64,000 nt of DNA from an uncultured bacterium (GCA_963720265.1 CAVRET010000002.1:663601-727600), one strand, 5' to 3'; numbered from the stretch's first letter, positions 2,185-18,439 are shown. Numbers and translations are program-made. The notes: generated by a model not told the origin, from the letters alone.

Positions 2185-2787
2185 ATGGCAACTCAGCCGT
2201 CCAAGCGTGATGTCGAACTAATCTATGAGGTTGGTTGCCTGCGCCTGATGCAGCGCATGTGGAGCCGGTTTCTCACGCCTGAGTTCGCCAATGTGGCCGA
2301 GCACCACTTTCGCGTGGCTTGGATCGCTCTGATTATCGCCAAATACGAACACGGCGATGAAGCCAAGGTGCTCAAAATGGCACTGGCTCACGACCTCTCG
2401 GAATCGCGCGCCGGTGATCTCGATTATGTTTCGCGGCTATATGCCGAGCGCCACGAAGACAAAGCCATTGCCGACATGCTTGACGGCACAGTGCTCGCGC
2501 CCGAAATCGTGGATCTCTGGCTCGAGTATGAAAAACTGGAGTCGCTCGAAGCCAAAATTGTCAAAGACGCCGATTATATTGATGTTGATGCTGAGTTGGC
2601 CGAGCAGCGCTCCCGTGGCAATCACGGAATCTACGACTTCAAAGAACCCATCCGGGAGCATGTCGGCGCGACCAAGCTCAAAACCGAAACCGGCAAACGC
2701 CTGTGGCAAGCAATCCGCGAGGGCAACCCCCTCGACTGGATTGCCAGTTCAAAAAACCGGCTCAACGCCGGCGACTGGAAAAAGTAA
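2185..2787 (+). CDS. HD-domain phosphohydrolase (YfbR-like 5'-deoxynucleotidase candidate)
   Basis: HD motif HHFRVAWIA...LAHDLSESRAGDL. Confidence 0.55.
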   Translation: MATQPSKRDVELIYEVGCLRLMQRMWSRFLTPEFANVAEHHFRVAWIALIIAKYEHGDEAKVLKMALAHDLSESRAGDLDYVSRLYAERHEDKAIADMLDGTVLAPEIVDLWLEYEKLESLEAKIVKDADYIDVDAELAEQRSRGNHGIYDFKEPIREHVGATKLKTETGKRLWQAIREGNPLDWIASSKNRLNAGDWKK

Positions 2788-3315: not shown

Positions 3316-4065
3316 TCACTCCGCCAACAGCTTGGCGAACGCCACCAGCAGGATTCCTTCACACAGCCGCGCTTCGGTGAAAGCCACGCAGGGGCAGGTC
3401 ATTGTGTCCAGATACACGTAGTGGTCGAGGTAGAAGTAGCGATTGGTGCCCACGTCGCTCAACGGCAACGCAGTGCCGAAGTGCTCTATCGCCAGCAGGC
3501 ACTGCTCAATGAGCGGCCGGTTGTAACTGCTACCGGTTTCCGCGCCGATCACCCAGGCGGCGACCAGTGCCAGTGCTGCCGGCTTCAACCGCTCCGGCAG
3601 GCCGGCGAACTGCATGCCCAAGAGCGGGTGGTCCTCGAGCAGATCGGGATCAGCGGACCGCTGCAAGACGTTCACCGGGTTGCTCAGGATAGCCACACCA
3701 TACTTGGCCAGGGCCACGATCAGGTGGCTACACATACCGACCTTACCCTCAAGACGCCCCTGGTACAGCGGGCAGGTGCAGGTAAGGTTGTTGAGATCGA
3801 CCGTGTACGTGCCGTCGTCGCCCGTAAACTCGAAGACGCCTGGTCCTTTACTCGTGAGCTTGCGTCCTTCGCGCAAGTATCTCGCTGCGCGCAGCGTCTT
3901 GTCGACCTGCGTTGTTTGCACATTGGCCACGAACATGATGATGAGCACATCGATCACGGCTGTCTGGGCCTTTGCCAGTCCGAATGGCCAGTCACGAATA
4001 ATCCCATGCTTGTCCATCAGCGGGCCATAACCGCGTCCGTCCAACAGCCTAAGCGTTTCAAGCAT
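3316..4065 (-). CDS. SWIM zinc-finger domain protein
   Basis: CTCPLYQGRLEGKVGMCSHL fits the SWIM pattern CxCx(n)CxH. A second Cys cluster MTCPCVAF follows. Confidence 0.5.
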   Translation of the reverse strand: MLETLRLLDGRGYGPLMDKHGIIRDWPFGLAKAQTAVIDVLIIMFVANVQTTQVDKTLRAARYLREGRKLTSKGPGVFEFTGDDGTYTVDLNNLTCTCPLYQGRLEGKVGMCSHLIVALAKYGVAILSNPVNVLQRSADPDLLEDHPLLGMQFAGLPERLKPAALALVAAWVIGAETGSSYNRPLIEQCLLAIEHFGTALPLSDVGTNRYFYLDHYVYLDTMTCPCVAFTEARLCEGILLVAFAKLLAE

Positions 4066-4189: not shown

Positions 4190-7100
4190 ATGAAGCAGTA
4201 CGATCCCAAAACCATTGAGCCCAAATGGCAGCAAATCTGGGCCGACACCAATCTGTATGCCGCCATCGACGGTGATTCCAGGCCAAAATATTACATGCTC
4301 ACTGAGTTCCCGTATCCGTCAGCCGCCGGTCTCCACGCCGGCCACGTACGCGAGTACACCATCGGCGACGTCATGGCCCGCCATAAACGTATGCTCGGCC
4401 ACAACGTGCTCTACCCCATGGGCTGGGACGCCTTTGGCCTGCCTACCGAAAATTACGCTATTAAGACCGGCCAGAAGCCAAAGGATGTCACTGCCACCAA
4501 CACGGCCATCTTTCGCCGCCAGATGCAATTGCTTGGCCTCGGTTTCGATTGGTCGCGCGAGGTCAATACCTCGGACCCGGCCTACTACAAATGGACCCAG
4601 TGGCTGTTTTTGCAATTCTTCAAGCACGGCCTCGCCTATCAGGCCGAGATTCCCATTAATTGGTGCCCATTTGAAAAAACCGGCCTGGCCAACGAAGAGG
4701 TGATAAATGGCGTCCACGAGCGCTGCGGCACCCCGGTTGAGAAAAAACTGCTTAAGCAATGGATGCTTAAAATCACCGCCTACGCCGACCGGCTGGTGGA
4801 TGGCTTAAAAACCGTCGACTACCCTCCCCGTATCGCCGACCAGCAAATCAACTGGATCGGCCGCTCTGAGGGTGCCAACATCGACTTCTCCGTTGCCGGC
4901 GAGAAAATTACTGTCTACACTACCCGCCCCGACACGCTCGCCGGCGCTACCTTCCTCGTGCTCGCGCCCGAGCATCCAGCCGTGGCCAAAATTACAAGAC
5001 CGCAGCAGAAAGACCGGGTTGAGCAATACGTTAAGAAAACCCAGTCCGAGACCGATCTAAACCGCCAGGAAGAAAACCGGCCCAAAACCGGTGTCTTTAC
5101 CGGCGTCCATACCATAAATCCCATCACCAAAGCCAGCATGCCGGTCTGGATTGCCGACTATGTGCTGGCCGGCTACGGTACCGGCGCCATTATGGCCGTT
5201 CCTGCCCATGATGAGCGAGATTTTGCCTTTGCCAAGGCCATGAATAAGCAGCTGGGCTACGACGTAGAGCCCACCTATGTTGACATTGAATCAACGCCTC
5301 GGCCGGACCAGCCATTCGAAAACCGCGAAGTTGCCCAGGCTATAGTCAAGCATCCGACCGAGCAAAAGTACCTATTGTTGGAGCTTAAAGCCTGGGACGA
5401 CAAATCTTACAGCTACCCCATGGGAGGAATCCACGACGGCGAAACCCCGACCGAAACGGCAGTGCGCGAGCTGACTGAGGAAACCGGCTACGACCATATC
5501 AGACACACCAGGCCGATCAGTGCGCCTTACTTTGCGGAATTTTATCACCAGCACAAACACGTCAATCGGCGCGCTCACGTCCACAGTGTATTCATTGAAC
5601 TTGCCGATCTTCACCAATCTGGCATTGCACAACACGAACGCGACCTGCACGGGCTTCATTGGCTTACCGGTGACGAGGTGGCCAGCAAGGTACTTGGTAC
5701 CGGCACAAAGAAATTAATGCTCGACTTCCTTGCCGGCCGCGCCACTCCGGCTATCGACATCATACCGGTGATCGACCCTGTCCTCATTCGCGACGATGCG
5801 AGGGATTTGAAGGAATTCAAGCGCCATCGCAAAATCGTCGCCGTCGTCGAAAATGCCGCAGGCGAAATCCTCACTATCAACTGGGGTCCAAAGTATGGCG
5901 GCCGCCTCACCATTGGCGGCACCATCGAAGGCGACGAGGCACCCGAAATTACAGCTATGCGCGAAGTCGCCGAAGAAACCGGTTACCACGACCTCGAAGT
6001 GCTCGAAACCGGCGCCGAAACCATGCATTACAAGTATTATGCCTTCTCTAAAAGGGAAGGGCACGATGTCACCGTCCGGTTCATTCATACGCGCCTTAAA
6101 AGCGACAAACGCAAAGCCCAAGATCTCAACGAATCCGAGAAAAACAAATTCACAGTCGAATGGGCAACACGCAACCAAGCCGAGCGCGAGATCGTTGAGC
6201 CGCTTCACCGCTACGCCATAAACAAATTCATCTTTGGTCATGTCCATGCCGGCGACGGTGTGCTCGTGAACTCCGGCCAATTTGACGGCCTGCAAAACGA
6301 CGAAGCCAGGCGTGCTATTGTCCAGTGGCTGTTTGATCAGGGCCTGGGCCGCCACGCCACCACCTACCGCTTGCGCGACTGGATTTTCTCACGCCAGCAC
6401 TACTGGGGCGAGCCTATCCCCATTATTCACTGCCCCAAAGACGGCGCCGTGCCCGTGCCCGACGACCAGCTGCCCGTAAAGCTGCCCGAGGTTGAGCATT
6501 ATGAACCCACCGATACCGGCGAATCGCCGCTCGCCGCCATTTCCGAATTCGTAAACACTACTTGCCCCAAGTGCGGCGGCCCGGCCAAACGCGAAACCGA
6601 CACCATGCCCAACTGGGCCGGCTCAAGCTGGTACTACCTACGCTACATGGACCCGCACAACGACCACGAATTCGCCGGCCGCGCCAACATGGATTATTGG
6701 GGCATGGTCGATATCTACCTCGGCGGAATGGAGCACACCACGCTCCACTTGCTCTATTCACGTTTTTGGCACCAGTTCTTTTACGATCAGGGCCTCGTGC
6801 CCACGCCGGAACCCTATGCCGCCCGCCGCGGTCAAGGCATAGTTTTGGCTTCGGACGGCCGTAAAATGAGTAAATCACTCGGCAACGTCGTCAACCCCAC
6901 TGACATCGTCGAACGCTACGGCGCCGATACCTTCCGTCTATACATCATGTTCATGGCGCCGTACGACGAAACCACACCCTGGAGTGACGAGCGTTTAAAC
7001 GGTGTCTCGCGCTTCCTCTACCGCGTCTGGGCGCTCGTTCAACAGTTACGTGAACCACAAGCCGAAATCGCGCCGAATGGCATTATCGAGACCGAAGTCG

Positions 7101-7588
7101 ATCGCACTACCCACAAAACCCTCAAAAAGGTCCACGACGACCTCGAAGGGATGCGCTTTAACACTTACGTCAGTGCACTTATGGAATGCGTCAATTACCT
7201 GAACTCGCCGGCGAACCTGACTGCGATTCGCAACCACCCGGCTCTCTCCGAGCGCACCATCCGGACGCTCATTCTCATGCTCGCCCCGGCCGCACCGCAC
7301 CTGGCCGAAGAGCTTTGGCACGAGCTGGGCGAGCAGGGGAGCGTGCATACTGCACCATGGCCCAAATACGACCCCGAGCTCATCAAGGACGACCTCATCA
7401 CCATAGTGGTACAGATAAACGGAAAGGTTCGTGGCCAAACCACGGCCCCGGCCGACGTCACCGAGGCCGACCTCATCAATTTAGCCTCAATCGAGCCCAA
7501 GGTGGCCGCTCTGCTTGATGGCAAAAAGGTTGCAAATACTATTGTCGTGCCCCGCCGCCTCGTCAATTTCGTCGTTAAGGAGAGCTAG
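4190..7588 (+). CDS. leuS: leucyl-tRNA synthetase with an insertion of about 335 aa containing two Nudix domains
   Basis: HAGH (HIGH variant), the editing-domain blocks TTRPDTLAGATFLVLAPEHP and GTGAIMAVPAHDERDF, YRLRDWIFSRQHYWGEPIP, KMSKSLGN, and the anticodon-binding region are all present. Two perfect Nudix boxes, GGIHDGETPTETAVRELTEETGY and [24 protein letters not shown], lie between the editing domain and SGQFDGL. Confidence 0.9.
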   Translation: MKQYDPKTIEPKWQQIWADTNLYAAIDGDSRPKYYMLTEFPYPSAAGLHAGHVREYTIGDVMARHKRMLGHNVLYPMGWDAFGLPTENYAIKTGQKPKDVTATNTAIFRRQMQLLGLGFDWSREVNTSDPAYYKWTQWLFLQFFKHGLAYQAEIPINWCPFEKTGLANEEVINGVHERCGTPVEKKLLKQWMLKITAYADRLVDGLKTVDYPPRIADQQINWIGRSEGANIDFSVAGEKITVYTTRPDTLAGATFLVLAPEHPAVAKITRPQQKDRVEQYVKKTQSETDLNRQEENRPKTGVFTGVHTINPITKASMPVWIADYVLAGYGTGAIMAVPAHDERDFAFAKAMNKQLGYDVEPTYVDIESTPRPDQPFENREVAQAIVKHPTEQKYLLLELKAWDDKSYSYPMGGIHDGETPTETAVRELTEETGYDHIRHTRPISAPYFAEFYHQHKHVNRRAHVHSVFIELADLHQSGIAQHERDLHGLHWLTGDEVASKVLGTGTKKLMLDFLAGRATPAIDIIPVIDPVLIRDDARDLKEFKRHRKIVAVVENAAGEILTINWGPKYGGRLTIGGTIEGDEAPEITAMREVAEETGYHDLEVLETGAETMHYKYYAFSKREGHDVTVRFIHTRLKSDKRKAQDLNESEKNKFTVEWATRNQAEREIVEPLHRYAINKFIFGHVHAGDGVLVNSGQFDGLQNDEARRAIVQWLFDQGLGRHATTYRLRDWIFSRQHYWGEPIPIIHCPKDGAVPVPDDQLPVKLPEVEHYEPTDTGESPLAAISEFVNTTCPKCGGPAKRETDTMPNWAGSSWYYLRYMDPHNDHEFAGRANMDYWGMVDIYLGGMEHTTLHLLYSRFWHQFFYDQGLVPTPEPYAARRGQGIVLASDGRKMSKSLGNVVNPTDIVERYGADTFRLYIMFMAPYDETTPWSDERLNGVSRFLYRVWALVQQLREPQAEIAPNGIIETEVDRTTHKTLKKVHDDLEGMRFNTYVSALMECVNYLNSPANLTAIRNHPALSERTIRTLILMLAPAAPHLAEELWHELGEQGSVHTAPWPKYDPELIKDDLITIVVQINGKVRGQTTAPADVTEADLINLASIEPKVAALLDGKKVANTIVVPRRLVNFVVKES

Positions 7589-8115
7589 TGGGCCTCAAAA
7601 TCGACTACAAATTTTGCCCGCAATGTCGACGGCCGATGACTCGTACCGCCGAGGGTGACCCGCATTGCGGGCATTGTGACATTACCGTTTATGACGATGT
7701 TGCCGCCGGTGCCTCAGCGCTGATTATCCGTGACGATCATGTTTTGCTCAGCCGGCGCGCCCGCGAGCCATATGAGGGTGACTATGACCTGGTTGGTGGA
7801 TTCATGAAGGCCGGCGAGTCACCTGAGCAAACGGCGGCCCGTGAGGCCATGGAAGAGACAGGACTAACCATAAAAATCAGTAAACTGCTTGGCATCTATC
7901 CCGATCAATACGGTGAAAACGGAAGCCCCGTCATTAGCATCGTCTATATCGGAGAGCACGTCGCCGGTTCAGAACAGGCAGGCGACGACGCTGCTGCTCT
8001 TGAATGGGTCGAAATTGAGCGGATCCCACCAGTCGCTTTTCAAAGCCGCTTCCAAAGCGTCCGCCAACCCTTGCACGATCTGCAGACCTGGTACCGCAGG
8101 CGAAAGGCGAGCTAG
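7588..8115 (+). CDS. NUDIX hydrolase with an N-terminal C4 zinc ribbon (NudC-like architecture)
   Basis: CPQC...CGHC zinc ribbon followed by the Nudix box GGFMKAGESPEQTAAREAMEETGL. The GTG start overlaps the leuS stop (TAGTG). Confidence 0.6.
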   Translation: MGLKIDYKFCPQCRRPMTRTAEGDPHCGHCDITVYDDVAAGASALIIRDDHVLLSRRAREPYEGDYDLVGGFMKAGESPEQTAAREAMEETGLTIKISKLLGIYPDQYGENGSPVISIVYIGEHVAGSEQAGDDAAALEWVEIERIPPVAFQSRFQSVRQPLHDLQTWYRRRKAS

Positions 8116-8777
8116 TGCCAGACCGCGCCGACTACTATCAAATTCTCGGCATCAAACCTTCTGCGACCGCAGCCGAAATCAAAACCGCCTATCACACTGC
8201 CGCCAAGCGCGCTCACCCGGACGCCGGCGGCTCGGCCGAAGCTATGCAGCGGGTCAACGAGGCGTATGCCGCGCTCAATGACCCGGATGCCCGGGCCGAC
8301 TACGACTACGACCACGCGGCAGTGAATCAGCCACCGCCCGAACGCCGGGCCACCCATACTGGACAGCCGCCCGCCTCGCCTCCCCATGCTGCCGCAGCCA
8401 CCGCCCGCGCTCAGGCCGAGGCCCAGGCCAGGGCCGATTATCGCCGCGCCATGGGCTACGCCCGCCGCTCAGCCTTCAAACAATTCGGCCTAAGTGCTTT
8501 CGCCGCCGCGGTCTTGTCCCCACCATGCCGCTTCTGGCCGCACGCGTACCCGATCGCAGCACCAAAACCATTTTTGCCCTCATTGCCTTCGCGCCCGTCT
8601 ATAGTCTCGCCATTGCCATCATGTTCTTGGCGCAACCGCGCCTACGTTTGGCCGTCGCCGTCATGGGCCACAGGAATGCCAGGCTTTCGCGCCACGACCG
8701 CACTGCTCTCGCTGGCATTGCCCTGGCTGCACTGCCACTTGCCGCCATTTGGGTCGTTCTCTTCAATTTTGGCCTGA
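8115..8777 (+). CDS. J-domain (DnaJ-like) protein. Its C-terminal third is probably frame-shifted relative to a membrane segment.
   Basis: J domain YYQILGIKPSATAAEIKTAYHTAAKRAHPDAGG. Downstream, the composition degenerates, while the alternate-frame ORF 8525..8785 encodes clean TM helices. Confidence 0.55.
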   Translation: MPDRADYYQILGIKPSATAAEIKTAYHTAAKRAHPDAGGSAEAMQRVNEAYAALNDPDARADYDYDHAAVNQPPPERRATHTGQPPASPPHAAAATARAQAEAQARADYRRAMGYARRSAFKQFGLSAFAAAVLSPPCRFWPHAYPIAAPKPFLPSLPSRPSIVSPLPSCSWRNRAYVWPSPSWATGMPGFRATTALLSLALPWLHCHLPPFGSFSSILA

Positions 8778-8884
8778 TTAAGTAATAAATGCTTTACATT
8801 CCGAGGCTCCCCCTCTAGAATGCATTTCTAAACGTCCCGTTGCCAATTCGTTCCAGATAACATATAATCTCACGCAAGAGTGCA

Positions 8885-9316
8885 ATGCGCATCAATGTCA
8901 GTGATCTTTTAGCCGAATCGGTTGGGTACTCACGCCAATTTATCATCGCAGATGAATGGCCGGTACTCGAGGACACAGTCCTTGTCGAAGCCGTGGATGG
9001 GCAAGTTACCATTATCCGGCTCGACGAGGGAGTAGCCGTTCGCGGCCGAGCTACAATCAAGGTTGAGCTCCAGTGCGATCGCTGTCTGTGCGAGTTCACG
9101 TGTCCGGTTACTCTTCCGCTGCAGCAACTCTACACTACCCTCCCGGGTGACGACGAGCTGCCGCTTGATCGCGGTGTCATTGATCTGGCCCCACTCATCG
9201 AGCAGGAAATCGTACTGGGCCTGCCTATAAAATCACTCTGCCGGCCGGATTGCGTCGGAATTAAGAACCTGCAAGAAACGAAAGGAACCCCTCGTGGCCG
9301 TACCAAAAAAACGTAA
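8885..9316 (+). CDS. yceD: YceD/DUF177 family protein (large ribosomal subunit accumulation protein)
   Basis: The conserved CDRCLCEF block sits immediately upstream of rpmF, as in the canonical yceD-rpmF pair. Confidence 0.6.
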   Translation: MRINVSDLLAESVGYSRQFIIADEWPVLEDTVLVEAVDGQVTIIRLDEGVAVRGRATIKVELQCDRCLCEFTCPVTLPLQQLYTTLPGDDELPLDRGVIDLAPLIEQEIVLGLPIKSLCRPDCVGIKNLQETKGTPRGRTKKT

Positions 9317-9461
9317 AACCCGTGGTGCCCAAGGTCAGCACCGCTCACATAATGCCCTCGTTCCCACTCAGCTGGTTAGCGCCACAGGCGGTCGGCTCAT
9401 TCCCCGCCGCCTCAAGAAAGCCGCTGAGCTCGGTCTCTTAAAAACCGTAGGCAAGGCGTAG
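9294..9461 (+). CDS. rpmF: 50S ribosomal protein L32
   Basis: Found by manual translation and absent from the ORF track because it is under 60 aa. It has a GTG start and encodes MAVPKKRKTRGAQGQHRSHNALVPTQLVSATGGRLIPRRLKKAAELGLLKTVGKA, whose N-terminus is the classic L32 N-terminus. It overlaps the yceD 3' end. Confidence 0.8.
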   Translation: MAVPKKRKTRGAQGQHRSHNALVPTQLVSATGGRLIPRRLKKAAELGLLKTVGKA

Positions 9462-9473
9462 TCACCAACCTCT

Positions 9474-9947
9474 ATGGCTTCCAATCGTCATCTCGGCCGC
9501 ATCGTTGCCATGCAAACGCTCTACGAGCATGATTTTCGTGGTGGCGACGGTACCGAGCTCGCTCTTGACCCCATTCTCCAGCGCAATCTCGATGAATTCC
9601 GCAGCTCCATCGACGACATCAACTTCGTTGAAGACCTAGTTTCCGGCGTGCACGAGCACCAGGCCGAAATCGACGGCATTATCGGTCCAGCCGCGCCCGA
9701 ATGGCCGGTTGAGCAGATTGCTAAGATCGACAAAATTATCCTGCGCATCGGTGTATACGAGCTCATGATCAAGCGGGATGTTCCACCGAAGGTTGCCATC
9801 AACGAGGCCGTTGAGCTGGCCAAAACCTTCGGCGGCGAAAACTCGAGTAAATTTATTAACGGTGTCCTCGGCACCATCTATCGGAACAGTGATTTTTATG
9901 AACCAGAAAGCGAAAAACCGGCCGTACCGACCGACCAAAACGAGTAA
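9474..9947 (+). CDS. nusB: transcription antitermination factor NusB
   Basis: AREIAMQ-like N-terminus ([11 protein letters not shown]), FVEDLVSGV, and [25 protein letters not shown]. Confidence 0.85.
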
Positions 9948-10461
9948 AACCCCGCCTCGCATTAAGGCCACCCGCGAATACACCGCCGGCGGCGTGGTGT
10001 TTCGGCGCATCGATGACCGCATCGACATCCTCATGATCCAAGACCGCCTCGGCCGTTGGACCATTCCCAAGGGCCACGTTGAACCCGGCGAAAGCTTGGA
10101 GCAAACAGCGCTGCGTGAAGTGGCTGAGGAAACCGGTCTGCAGCGCTTTCGCATCGGCGAAAAGCTCGACACATTGCGCTTTTTTTATCGCAAAGATGGC
10201 AAGCTCATCTTCATGACCACCGACGTGTTTGTCATGGAGGCGCTTGGTGATACCGAAAGCTTAAGCCACGGTGACTCAGCAGGCATCGTTGATGTGAAGT
10301 GGTTTGCAGCCGACCGCGCCCTCAAACTAGTGGAATACCGCGATACCGAGCGGCTGTTCCGCATGTGCCTGGCCAAACTCGATGCGCCGGGGTCAAAACA
10401 TCAGCACCGTCGTCCTCGCCGCCGCCTCGCCACTGCGACCGGAGGCCGCACTAGTGAATAA
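9898..10461 (+). CDS. NUDIX hydrolase
   Basis: Nudix box [23 protein letters not shown]. The start was moved to ATG 9898 (MNQKAK...), which is in frame with the track ORF 9778. Confidence 0.6.
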
Positions 10462-11146
10462 CCCGGAGTTGGCCGACTTCCAGCAGCGCCTCGCCGTAAC
10501 TTTCAATGACCCACAGCTACTCGAACGCGCCTTTATCCACCGTTCGTACCTCAACGAACACCCTAAGCTTGGTCTCGAGCACAACGAGCGCCTGGAGTTC
10601 CTGGGCGATGCAGTGCTCGAATTGGTAGTAACGGATCACCTCTACCGCAATTACCCGAATCCCGAAGGAGACCTCACCAACTGGCGCTCGGCCCTTGTTA
10701 AAACCGAATCGCTGGCCGCCGCCGCCGACAAGCTGCAGATTGCGCCCTATTTCAAGCTCAGCCGTGGCGAGGCCAAGGGCAACGCCAGATCGCACGCCCT
10801 CATTTCTGCCAATGCGGTTGAAGCCATTATCGGTGCGATCTATCTGGACCAGGGCTACGATACGGCCGCCGACTTTATTAATGAGCATATCGTTTCCCGC
10901 CTGCCAGAAATTCTCGAAACCGGAACTTGGATGGACCCCAAAAGCAAGTTCCAAGAGCTGGCCCAAGAACGTTACGGCCTAACCCCCGTCTACAAAGTTA
11001 TTGAAGAATCCGGCCCCGACCATGACAAGGTCTTCACTGTCGGCGCCTATGTTGGCGACAAGCGCTTCGGCCAAGGCACTGGATCATCCAAGCAGGCCGC
11101 CCAACAAGTTGCCGCTGCCACCGCCCTCAAGCAAATTAAGCAGTAA
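10454..11146 (+). CDS. rnc: ribonuclease III
   Basis: RNase III signature ERLEFLGDAVLELVV plus a C-terminal dsRBD. I prefer the GTG start at 10454, which is preceded by GGAGG. Confidence 0.85.
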   Translation: MNNPELADFQQRLAVTFNDPQLLERAFIHRSYLNEHPKLGLEHNERLEFLGDAVLELVVTDHLYRNYPNPEGDLTNWRSALVKTESLAAAADKLQIAPYFKLSRGEAKGNARSHALISANAVEAIIGAIYLDQGYDTAADFINEHIVSRLPEILETGTWMDPKSKFQELAQERYGLTPVYKVIEESGPDHDKVFTVGAYVGDKRFGQGTGSSKQAAQQVAAATALKQIKQ

Positions 11147-11221: not shown

Positions 11222-11836
11222 GTGCACATGCCTTGGGAAAGAGTTGAGCGGCGAAACCAACAGCCACTTCCGGCCGGATGCTGCCGGCTGATTGTGGTTG
11301 ATCTGCTAACGCTTATTACCAGTCCGCTATTTTCCGATCACGGCCAGTTCAACAAGCGGCTTGCGCTCGGAGACCGGGCTGACCGAAGTGGTAATGTCGC
11401 CTGGTTTGTGGTTACCGCACTGCCCGCAGCCGAGGCGCATACCTACCTGCATCCCTACCTCAATGTGTTCTTCCAGCAACGACGCTGGGCGCAGTCCGGG
11501 TTTAGCTGCCGGGTCAAGTATGTCAGCATCGAGGGCCGGACCATCACTGAGCGCGACTACCAATATGCCGGCATTCAAGCGCCGACCGCCATCGTGTATG
11601 TGACCTGTGCATCCGACGACACGGGCCTGCCGGCACGGCACGACTGGGCCCATCTGCTCCGCACGGCCGTCGGCGCCAAATCGGTTGAGCCGGGATTCGG
11701 GGAAATCGAGGACCTCATCCCCGCTCTGCCCGCTGGATCCGGCTTTGAGCACCTTGTCGTGCTCCGGTATTCTAGGGAAAAGCCCGGCTACTTGGTCGCG
11801 CTATTCAGATGGAGAGAGGTAACGGGCACCGGTTAA
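11222..11836 (+). CDS. hypothetical protein
   Basis: A 204-aa ORF with no recognisable motif. A 141-aa ORF overlaps it on the opposite strand, so the strand is uncertain. Confidence 0.3.
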   Translation: MHMPWERVERRNQQPLPAGCCRLIVVDLLTLITSPLFSDHGQFNKRLALGDRADRSGNVAWFVVTALPAAEAHTYLHPYLNVFFQQRRWAQSGFSCRVKYVSIEGRTITERDYQYAGIQAPTAIVYVTCASDDTGLPARHDWAHLLRTAVGAKSVEPGFGEIEDLIPALPAGSGFEHLVVLRYSREKPGYLVALFRWREVTGTG

Positions 11837-18364: not shown

Positions 18365-18439
18365 TGGGGCGTGGCCAAGTGGTAAGGCGCTTGATTCTGG
18401 CTCAAGAGATCGTAGGTTCGAATCCTACCGCCCCAGCCA
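18365..18439 (+). tRNA. tRNA-Gln (anticodon CTG), CCA encoded
   Basis: Manual cloverleaf. Acceptor TGGGGCG/CGCCCCA, D-arm GCCAAGTGGTAAGGC, anticodon stem CTTGA/TCAAG with loop TTCTGGC, and T-arm GTAGG-TTCGAAT-CCTAC. It closely resembles E. coli tRNA-Gln. Confidence 0.85.

Follow-up and report, generated by a model that had tools for sequence, protein, structure and literature searches.

We analysed a 64-kb stretch of DNA from an uncultured bacterium (GCA_963720265.1, CAVRET010000002.1:663601-727600; henceforth the window, with positions counted over its whole length) in which four Nudix hydrolase modules lie in and around the genes leuS, nusB and rnc (Table 1). Two of these modules, N1 and N2, are nested within the leucyl-tRNA synthetase (LeuRS) encoded by leuS; the third, N3, is a gene of its own directly behind leuS; and the fourth, N4, lies between nusB and rnc. 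The window belongs to a genome of the Saccharimonadia (Candidate Phyla Radiation/Patescibacteria), and the nearest LeuRS genes in a species-level genome collection all come from Candidatus Saccharimonadia/Saccharibacteria.

The window was scanned in six frames with the strict Nudix box, GX5EX7REUXEEXGU, which gave exactly four matches, all on the plus strand. A relaxed scan that required 7 or more of the 9 consensus positions found no further box in the remaining 59 kb. The Pfam family NUDIX (PF00293) was found in two stretches of LeuRS and once in each of the two free-standing genes, in every case above the cut-off. With four boxes packed into 4.7 kb and the other 59 kb devoid of them, chance does not account for the distribution. 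A sequence-only reading of the window had described a cluster of four Nudix catalytic modules around leuS-nusB-rnc, all with intact boxes, and both statements are borne out by the four strict matches, which together span positions 5423-10140. Recent local duplication was considered as the cause of this density and rejected, as pairwise similarity between N1-N4 is 22-47% and largely confined to the region of the box; the four modules are only distantly related to one another. The density is instead explained by the nested double domain together with a conserved gene order, as leuS adjoins a yceD-rpmF-nusB-X-rnc-rpsP cluster throughout the class and so makes neighbours of all four modules.

Table 1. 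Genes, domains and Nudix boxes at the locus (aa: amino acids; nt: nucleotides; ORF: open reading frame). Positions are those of the window unless another contig or sample is named.
Feature	Position	Strand	Nudix box	Evidence or remark
HD-domain protein like YfbR 5'-deoxynucleotidase	2185-2787	+		Pfam HD_3, YfbR-like
SWIM zinc finger ORF, 249 aa, between HD gene and leuS	3316-4065	-		
leuS, bacterial-type leucyl-tRNA synthetase, 1132 aa	4190-7588	+		TIGR00396, Pfam, motifs
CP1 editing-domain insertion, ~335 aa, LeuRS aa 353-687	5246-6250	+		phmmer, BLAST
N1, nested Nudix, type 1	5333-5713	+	5423-5491	Pfam NUDIX 4.6e-13, strict box
N2, nested Nudix, type 2	5819-6217	+	5918-5986	Pfam NUDIX 1.6e-13, strict box
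N3, free-standing zinc-ribbon Nudix, 175 aa	7588-8115	+	7798-7866	Pfam, PDB matches
J-domain (DnaJ) gene	8115-8777	+		Pfam DnaJ 1.2e-17
yceD (large ribosomal subunit accumulation protein)	8885-9316	+		Pfam YceD 2.1e-12
rpmF (ribosomal protein L32), 55 aa	9294-9461	+		ORF start MAVPKKRKTRG...; L32p Pfam in relatives
nusB	9474-9947	+		Pfam NusB 7.1e-37
N4, Nudix with basic N-terminal tail, 187 aa	9898-10461	+	10072-10140	Pfam, PDB phmmer
rnc (RNase III)	10454-11146 (longest ORF from 10382)	+		Pfam Ribonucleas_3_3, dsrm
ORF of 204 aa without assigned family, in 800-nt rnc-rpsP gap	11222-11836	+		
Synthetase-adjoining free-standing Nudix arrangements (valS and leuS cases)	L091:711-3462; JGI sample 3300071358			

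Nudix domains nested in the editing domain of LeuRS

The two domains inside LeuRS, which the sequence-only reading had mentioned as a side remark, are the most unusual part of the locus. Few enzymes are as conserved as aminoacyl-tRNA synthetases, and the bacterial ones rarely acquire new catalytic domains. In the full-text literature we found no paper on Nudix domains in LeuRS or in the editing domain of any synthetase, nor any on Nudix genes in Saccharibacteria, and tRNA synthetases go unmentioned in a 2017 survey that covers the whole Nudix clan.

The host protein scores 997.8 bits against the TIGR00396 leuS_bact model (cut-off 548.4), and its synthetic motifs (HAGH and KMSKS) and editing motifs (TTRPDT and AHDERD) are all intact. 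We compared it with the bacterial LeuRS of T. thermophilus (1H3N/2BYT) and E. coli (4AQ7), with which it shares a full-length match, the HIGH-type, KMSKS and editing motifs and, specifically, both the Thr-rich editing motif and the conserved editing Asp. It differs from them in that a 23-residue hairpin of CP1, the editing domain, is replaced by ~335 aa with two complete Nudix domains. The segment replaced corresponds to residues 356-378 of T. thermophilus LeuRS and lies just after the AHDxRD editing motif. In phmmer comparisons with LeuRS structures in the PDB, query residues 1-53 and 389-473 aligned with T. thermophilus residues 303-355 and 379-463, respectively, and BLAST against an insert-free relative placed the insertion at reference positions 353-360.

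We then examined the same site in 80 related loci from species-level genomes. The distance between the motifs that flank it is ~78 aa in insert-free LeuRS, ~220-240 aa in 22 of the 80 loci, and 393 aa in the LeuRS of the window and of one locus (L001). A Nudix domain was present at the insertion site in 23 of the 80, and PF00293 was found there in most of the 120 best database homologues; the carriers include many Saccharimonadia whose metagenome-assembled genomes bear no oral label. An assembly chimera was rejected as the origin of the arrangement, as a two-Nudix LeuRS is also encoded in independent assemblies (L001, P0009 and P0011). P0005 adds a further independent case, in which the second box is degenerate.

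Alignments of the nested units were made from the Nudix fragments only. A neighbour-joining tree separated the units into two large clades, type 1 (which includes N1) and type 2 (which includes N2), and wherever a LeuRS carries two units, type 1 always comes first and type 2 second. The number of nested copies per relative is one, two or three, the last in P0016 (1616 aa). Across 119 nested units scored, the nine-position box was perfect in 100 and the E-x2-EE glutamates were present in every one; past the box, both types have the same invariant residues, namely an aromatic pair at +17/+18 followed by Lys, Glu and Trp. We take N1 and N2 to be members of a single dedicated Nudix family whose two branches are old. 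Both were predicted by AlphaFold2 to adopt the canonical alpha/beta/alpha Nudix fold, with predicted local distance difference test (pLDDT) scores of 95.4 for N1 and 92.0 for N2. The ratio of non-synonymous to synonymous substitution rates (dN/dS), measured against the closest relative for which DNA was available (L081), was 0.10 for N2 and 0.074 for the LeuRS core. Taken together, the universal glutamates and a dN/dS of about 0.1 argue for pyrophosphohydrolase activity, and a non-catalytic role of the nested domains was rejected as unlikely given that no unit has lost E-x2-EE.

A degenerate box, GGIExGQT...AALTEIKEEAxL, characterises one subclade of the nested units (P0018, P0048, P0108, the second unit of P0005, L010 and L040); other residues stand in for the first Glu and the Arg, and E-x2-EE is retained. 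Such a box might mark either altered chemistry or a loss of activity.

What the nested domains act on is less readily read from their relatives. Searches of the PDB with the single sequences of N1 and N2 matched little outside the box. The Foldseek lists for both are headed by 2azw, with diadenosine polyphosphate (ApnA) hydrolases and RppH directly behind it. Being an uncharacterised, free-standing MutT/Nudix protein of Enterococcus faecalis that is ~20% identical and whose function is not known, 2azw transfers no substrate to N1 or N2. According to Dunn et al. (1999), whose rule is given in PMC5389931, ApnA hydrolases are marked by a Tyr in the X-loop, about 16-18 residues past the Nudix box, and we compared with this rule the aromatic pair that lies 17/18 residues after the box in N1 and N2; an ApnA-type substrate is suggested for the two domains, not established.

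Nudix units are not the only domains found within CP1. In relatives, other nested domains occur at three loops of CP1, also in combination (P0049, P0047, P0017, P0010, P0016 and P0004). Specifically, a serine hydrolase (PF06821) or an ASCH domain (PF04266) lies at the start of CP1; in some relatives a serine hydrolase occupies the Nudix site instead of a Nudix domain; and a third loop, further downstream, holds a 129-aa insert without family assignment. In P0016, a serine hydrolase and three Nudix units occur together. CP1 in this lineage is thus a general platform for nested domains. In a metagenome LeuRS (L099:3302-6292), a Nudix match falls between alignments to LeuRS residues 1-235 and 231-784, and it appears to occupy the first loop of CP1, a different one from that used in the window.

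In databases this architecture shows up only under automatic labels. Because of the extra CP1 domains, the NCBI annotation pipeline often names the relatives 'class I tRNA ligase family protein', and other database labels, equally automatic, read e.g. 'leucyl-tRNA synthetase/ADP-ribose pyrophosphatase YjhB'. A precedent for a class-Ia synthetase with a second enzyme domain is given by the NCBIfam model NF040702 ('isoleucine--tRNA ligase, N-acetyltransferase domain-containing'), which is present in the NCBIfam hit list. It differs from the present case in both the synthetase and the fold of the passenger, whereas here Nudix domains are nested in the editing domain in variable copy number.

To find free-standing relatives of the nested family, we searched a type-2 profile with HMMER against 1.84 billion cluster representatives and obtained 280 clusters at E ≤ 1e-10. 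Most of these were long LeuRS or fragments of LeuRS, and genuine free-standing members of 154-200 aa were also found. The closest one (type 2, E 1.6e-47) stands in the order tsaD-nudix-valS with a 4-nt gap to valS, and a type-1-like member is followed after 1 nt by a leuS with a nested Nudix of its own. A third lies 4 nt downstream of fpg/mutM, an 8-oxoguanine repair gene (L092:4016-5513, also L093 and L094), a position suggestive of MutT-like function in at least this branch. The fourth has a gene of the uridine-kinase family facing it. A gene for a class-Ia editing synthetase therefore adjoins 2 of the 4 free-standing cases examined, which is suggestive of a real link; a metagenome scan for further free-standing members gave mainly LeuRS-nested units, and these neighbourhood statistics are anecdotal.

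The free-standing genes N3 and N4

N3 is tightly joined to leuS. The last letter of the TAG stop codon of leuS (7586-7588) is also the first of the GTG start codon of N3, with AAGGAG shortly upstream; the TAGTG overlap by which the sequence-only reading had coupled N3 to leuS is therefore as described. A second TAGTG junction, likewise with a one-nt overlap, joins N3 to the DnaJ-domain gene at 8115. Orthologues of N3 with 46-64% identity occupy the same position in three independent contigs: directly after leuS with overlaps of 1-4 nt in L085 and L087, and behind the remnants of a fragmented leuS in L086. In all three contigs dnaJ, yceD, nusB and rnc follow the N3 orthologue in the same order, and the whole series leuS-N3-dnaJ-yceD-nusB-N4-rnc is seen again in independent contigs with an N3 gene. 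Our first synteny scan, over species-level loci, seemed to show N3 missing from relatives; this proved to be a sampling effect, since orthologues beside leuS do exist. N3 appears, on this distribution and on its domain content, to be a subclade-level companion of leuS, neither a NudC nor a fixed part of the neighbourhood.

The sequence-only reading had called N3 NudC-like, and part of this description stands. As in NudC, a zinc ribbon with four cysteines (C10-x2-C13 ... C27-x2-C30, encoded at 7615-7677) lies directly upstream of the Nudix fold; E. coli NudC chains in the PDB match N3 residues 7-102 at about 1e-10, and NudC (PRK00241) is its best NCBIfam match. That match, however, reaches only 54.7 bits against a cut-off of 158, and the PDB matches end at residue 102 and so miss the specificity-determining region that follows. 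At 175 aa compared with ~257 aa, N3 lacks the N-terminal domain of NudC, and neither PF09296 nor PF09297, the N-terminal and zinc-ribbon Pfam families of NudC, matched N3 even at E ≤ 5. Furthermore, the motif SQPWPFPxS downstream of the Nudix box, which marks NADH pyrophosphatases (PMC5389931), is absent from N3, where the sequence past the box is TIKISKLLGIYPDQYGENGSPV. The same two-part architecture and size as in N3 are seen in the zinc-ribbon Nudix proteins (PF14803), e.g., 3cng of Nitrosomonas, which matches N3 residues 8-105. PF14803 (Zn_ribbon_Nudix) is carried by a few more distant N3 homologues (38% identity and below), although N3 itself, unlike that group, has no match to it at E ≤ 5.

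N4 overlaps both of its neighbours, as had been proposed. The overlap with nusB is 50 nt (9898-9947). With rnc it is 80 nt only if translation of rnc begins at its first ATG (10382), and 8 nt if it begins at the GTG at 10454, which is the likely start since it lies behind GGAGG (10441-10445) and matches the start in relatives. The order nusB-N4-rnc was found in all 51 Saccharimonadia loci that hold the three genes (51/51), among them mammal-associated lineages whose LeuRS is insert-free. Across the 51 loci N4 and the first possible rnc start overlap by up to 14 nt or stand up to 38 nt apart, with a single exception of 228 nt. Every N4 orthologue among them has the strict box and the motif F[RF]YR[RK], whose Tyr lies 16 residues after the box, and the basic character of the N-terminal tail is conserved in the orthologue alignment. 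The dN/dS of N4 is 0.07-0.11, like that of nusB and rnc.

The nearest known systems to N4 are Nudix ApnA hydrolases (3i7u, Ndx1 1vc8, NUDT2 and Chlamydia CT771) and E. coli RppH. In phmmer searches of the PDB, N4 matched the diadenosine tetraphosphate (Ap4A) hydrolase aq_158 of Aquifex (3i7u) over its full length at 1.1e-16, followed by Thermus Ndx1 (2.6e-14), the C. elegans Ap4A hydrolase (2.6e-10) and NUDT2 (9e-9). It has the full-length alignment and the X-loop Tyr in common with 3i7u and Ndx1, and so shows both sequence marks of an ApnA hydrolase. N4 is a class-wide Nudix enzyme that resembles Ap4A hydrolases and RppH.

The sequence-only reading had proposed that conserved synteny would be informative for a link between the Nudix genes and RNA metabolism, and an absence of it damaging. 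Far from absent, synteny holds for nusB-N4-rnc in every locus with the three genes and for leuS-N3-...-rnc in the contigs that carry N3, which makes a link to translation and RNA processing reasonable. The proposed link to RNA metabolism is thus retained by way of gene order, best of all for N4, which abuts rnc, while the route through NudC and NAD caps is not supported.

Proposed roles and competing explanations

We read the locus as three independent conserved features, i.e., a Nudix family dedicated to class-Ia synthetases with two units inside LeuRS, an N3 gene coupled to leuS and a class-wide N4, each with a proposed role, and we put the probability of this reading at roughly 0.6. The four modules are real, folded and under selection, as seen from their anatomy, conservation, purifying selection, fold and gene order; all substrates and functional couplings we infer. 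In the reading proposed here, N1 and N2 would be active monomeric pyrophosphohydrolases that work in cis on LeuRS, most likely clearing away a nucleotide that class-Ia aminoacylation yields as a by-product, for which a dinucleoside polyphosphate, e.g., Ap4A, formed from aminoacyl-adenylate and ATP, is the best candidate. N3, a zinc-ribbon Nudix, would be translated together with leuS in a single subclade. N4 would trim RNA 5' ends (converting a triphosphate or Np4 cap to a monophosphate) or hydrolyse dinucleoside tetraphosphates (Np4N), alongside processing by RNase III. The most economical reading of N4, in our view, would be that of an enzyme coupled to RNase III that works like RppH or hydrolyses Np4N.

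Several observations weigh against these proposals. None of the modules N1-N4 reaches an NCBIfam equivalog cut-off; for the RppH equivalogs the best scores of N1, N2 and N4 are 27-40 bits against cut-offs of 116-259, which would weaken the statement that any of them is an RppH orthologue, not the statement that it works like RppH. N3 is missing from the closest relative examined (L081), and its more distant homologues lie elsewhere in their genomes. The gene order of small genomes is generally stable, so synteny alone is weak evidence for a shared function. The presence of serine hydrolase and ASCH domains in the same loops of relatives means that the LeuRS loop may just tolerate passengers. 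Finally, the fpg and uridine-kinase neighbours of the free-standing relatives point to nucleotide-pool sanitation, not to by-products of a synthetase.

The last two points are also the core of the strongest competing explanation, according to which the modules are housekeeping sanitation enzymes (of the MutT or NTP/dNTP pyrophosphatase kind) and passenger domains, fused into or lying beside a highly expressed essential gene of a streamlined genome, with a permissive LeuRS loop, and having no mechanistic link to aminoacylation or RNA processing. It gains from the recurrence of the fpg arrangement in three contigs and from the labels MutT or YjhB that the Joint Genome Institute (JGI) gives to relatives. 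Further nucleotide-metabolism genes also seem to adjoin the Nudix cluster: the YfbR-like HD 5'-nucleotidase gene upstream of leuS is found in relatives as well, directly before leuS in L081 and ~2.3 kb away in L085, and in L081 it is preceded by a gene of the dCTP-deaminase family. Against this explanation, the MutT equivalogs TIGR00586 and PRK10776 were not reached by any module (at most 34.5 bits against cut-offs of 97.9 and 148, with 20.6-24.6 bits for TIGR00586). It would be unexpected for random passengers that the closest type-2 free-standing member abuts valS and the type-1-like one leuS. One LeuRS site has been kept through deep divergence with a fixed order of type 1 before type 2, and the place of N4 between nusB and rnc has been kept across the class. 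We consider sanitation without a mechanistic link unlikely, though still a serious contender.

A more far-reaching version of our own proposal is that CP1 of LeuRS in many Saccharimonadia is a scaffold for extra hydrolases (one to three Nudix units, a serine hydrolase or ASCH) that extend synthetase quality control beyond deacylation. By-products derived from the adenylate, or inhibitors that mimic it, would be destroyed where they arise, or blocked tRNA acceptor ends would be repaired, and the same Nudix family would serve valyl-tRNA synthetase (ValRS) in trans in other lineages. A proofreading or repair activity of a new class, built into a synthetase, would then be at hand. We regard this version as improbable and offer it as speculation.

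The interpretation first given to the locus, with N3 as a NudC-type enzyme acting on NADH or NAD caps and the neighbourhood as a decapping module with RNase III and NusB, is very improbable. Beyond the differences between N3 and NudC described above, three genes separate N3 from nusB-N4-rnc, and N3 is missing from L081. The weakest alternative, to which we give slightly less credence still, is that the hydrolases nested in CP1 (Nudix, serine hydrolase and ASCH) repair or protect the tRNA acceptor end, removing a 3'-pyrophosphate or a toxin-installed group, or else destroy synthetase inhibitors such as adenylate mimics from actinobacterial hosts: each of the three passenger types is a hydrolase or an RNA-binding module and sits in the one LeuRS domain that handles the tRNA 3' end, the family recurs beside valS, the gene of a second editing synthetase, and some Nudix enzymes hydrolyse 3'-diphosphates, e.g., that of (p)ppGpp, but the proposal is purely inferential, no toxin or antitoxin genes were seen nearby, and PADLOC run on the region returned only a generic Nudix candidate match.

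Under our preferred reading of three conserved features, an essential synthetase in the ultra-small genome of an episymbiont retains, within its proofreading domain, between one and three Nudix hydrolases that appear to be active. If the nested enzymes do act on by-products or on tRNA ends, they would add a new layer to translational quality control and provide a ready-made natural system in which the nesting of one domain within another can be studied. If they are only passengers, they still illustrate the packing of housekeeping enzymes into essential genes by streamlined genomes, and they also explain why these LeuRS are automatically downgraded in annotation. The class-wide nusB-Nudix-rnc arrangement offers a concrete candidate for an enzyme of RNA 5'-end processing in Saccharibacteria.

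Other genes of the neighbourhood

The SWIM zinc finger ORF on the minus strand has the look of a lineage-specific insertion, since the HD gene and leuS, which it separates, are only ~75 nt apart in L081. A weak SWIM homologue lies upstream of leuS in L002. The 204-aa ORF likewise occupies a gap between genes, rnc and rpsP, that are adjacent in L081. Rfam gave no match in the Nudix region, and its sole match in the window, at 18365, is a tRNA-Gln(CTG) gene (18365-18439, plus strand), the only RNA gene found in the window by both Rfam and ARAGORN. A DnaJ gene downstream of leuS or N3 is also present in L081, L085, L086 and L087, and in the J-domain protein of the window the C-terminal half is hydrophobic and probably membrane-spanning.

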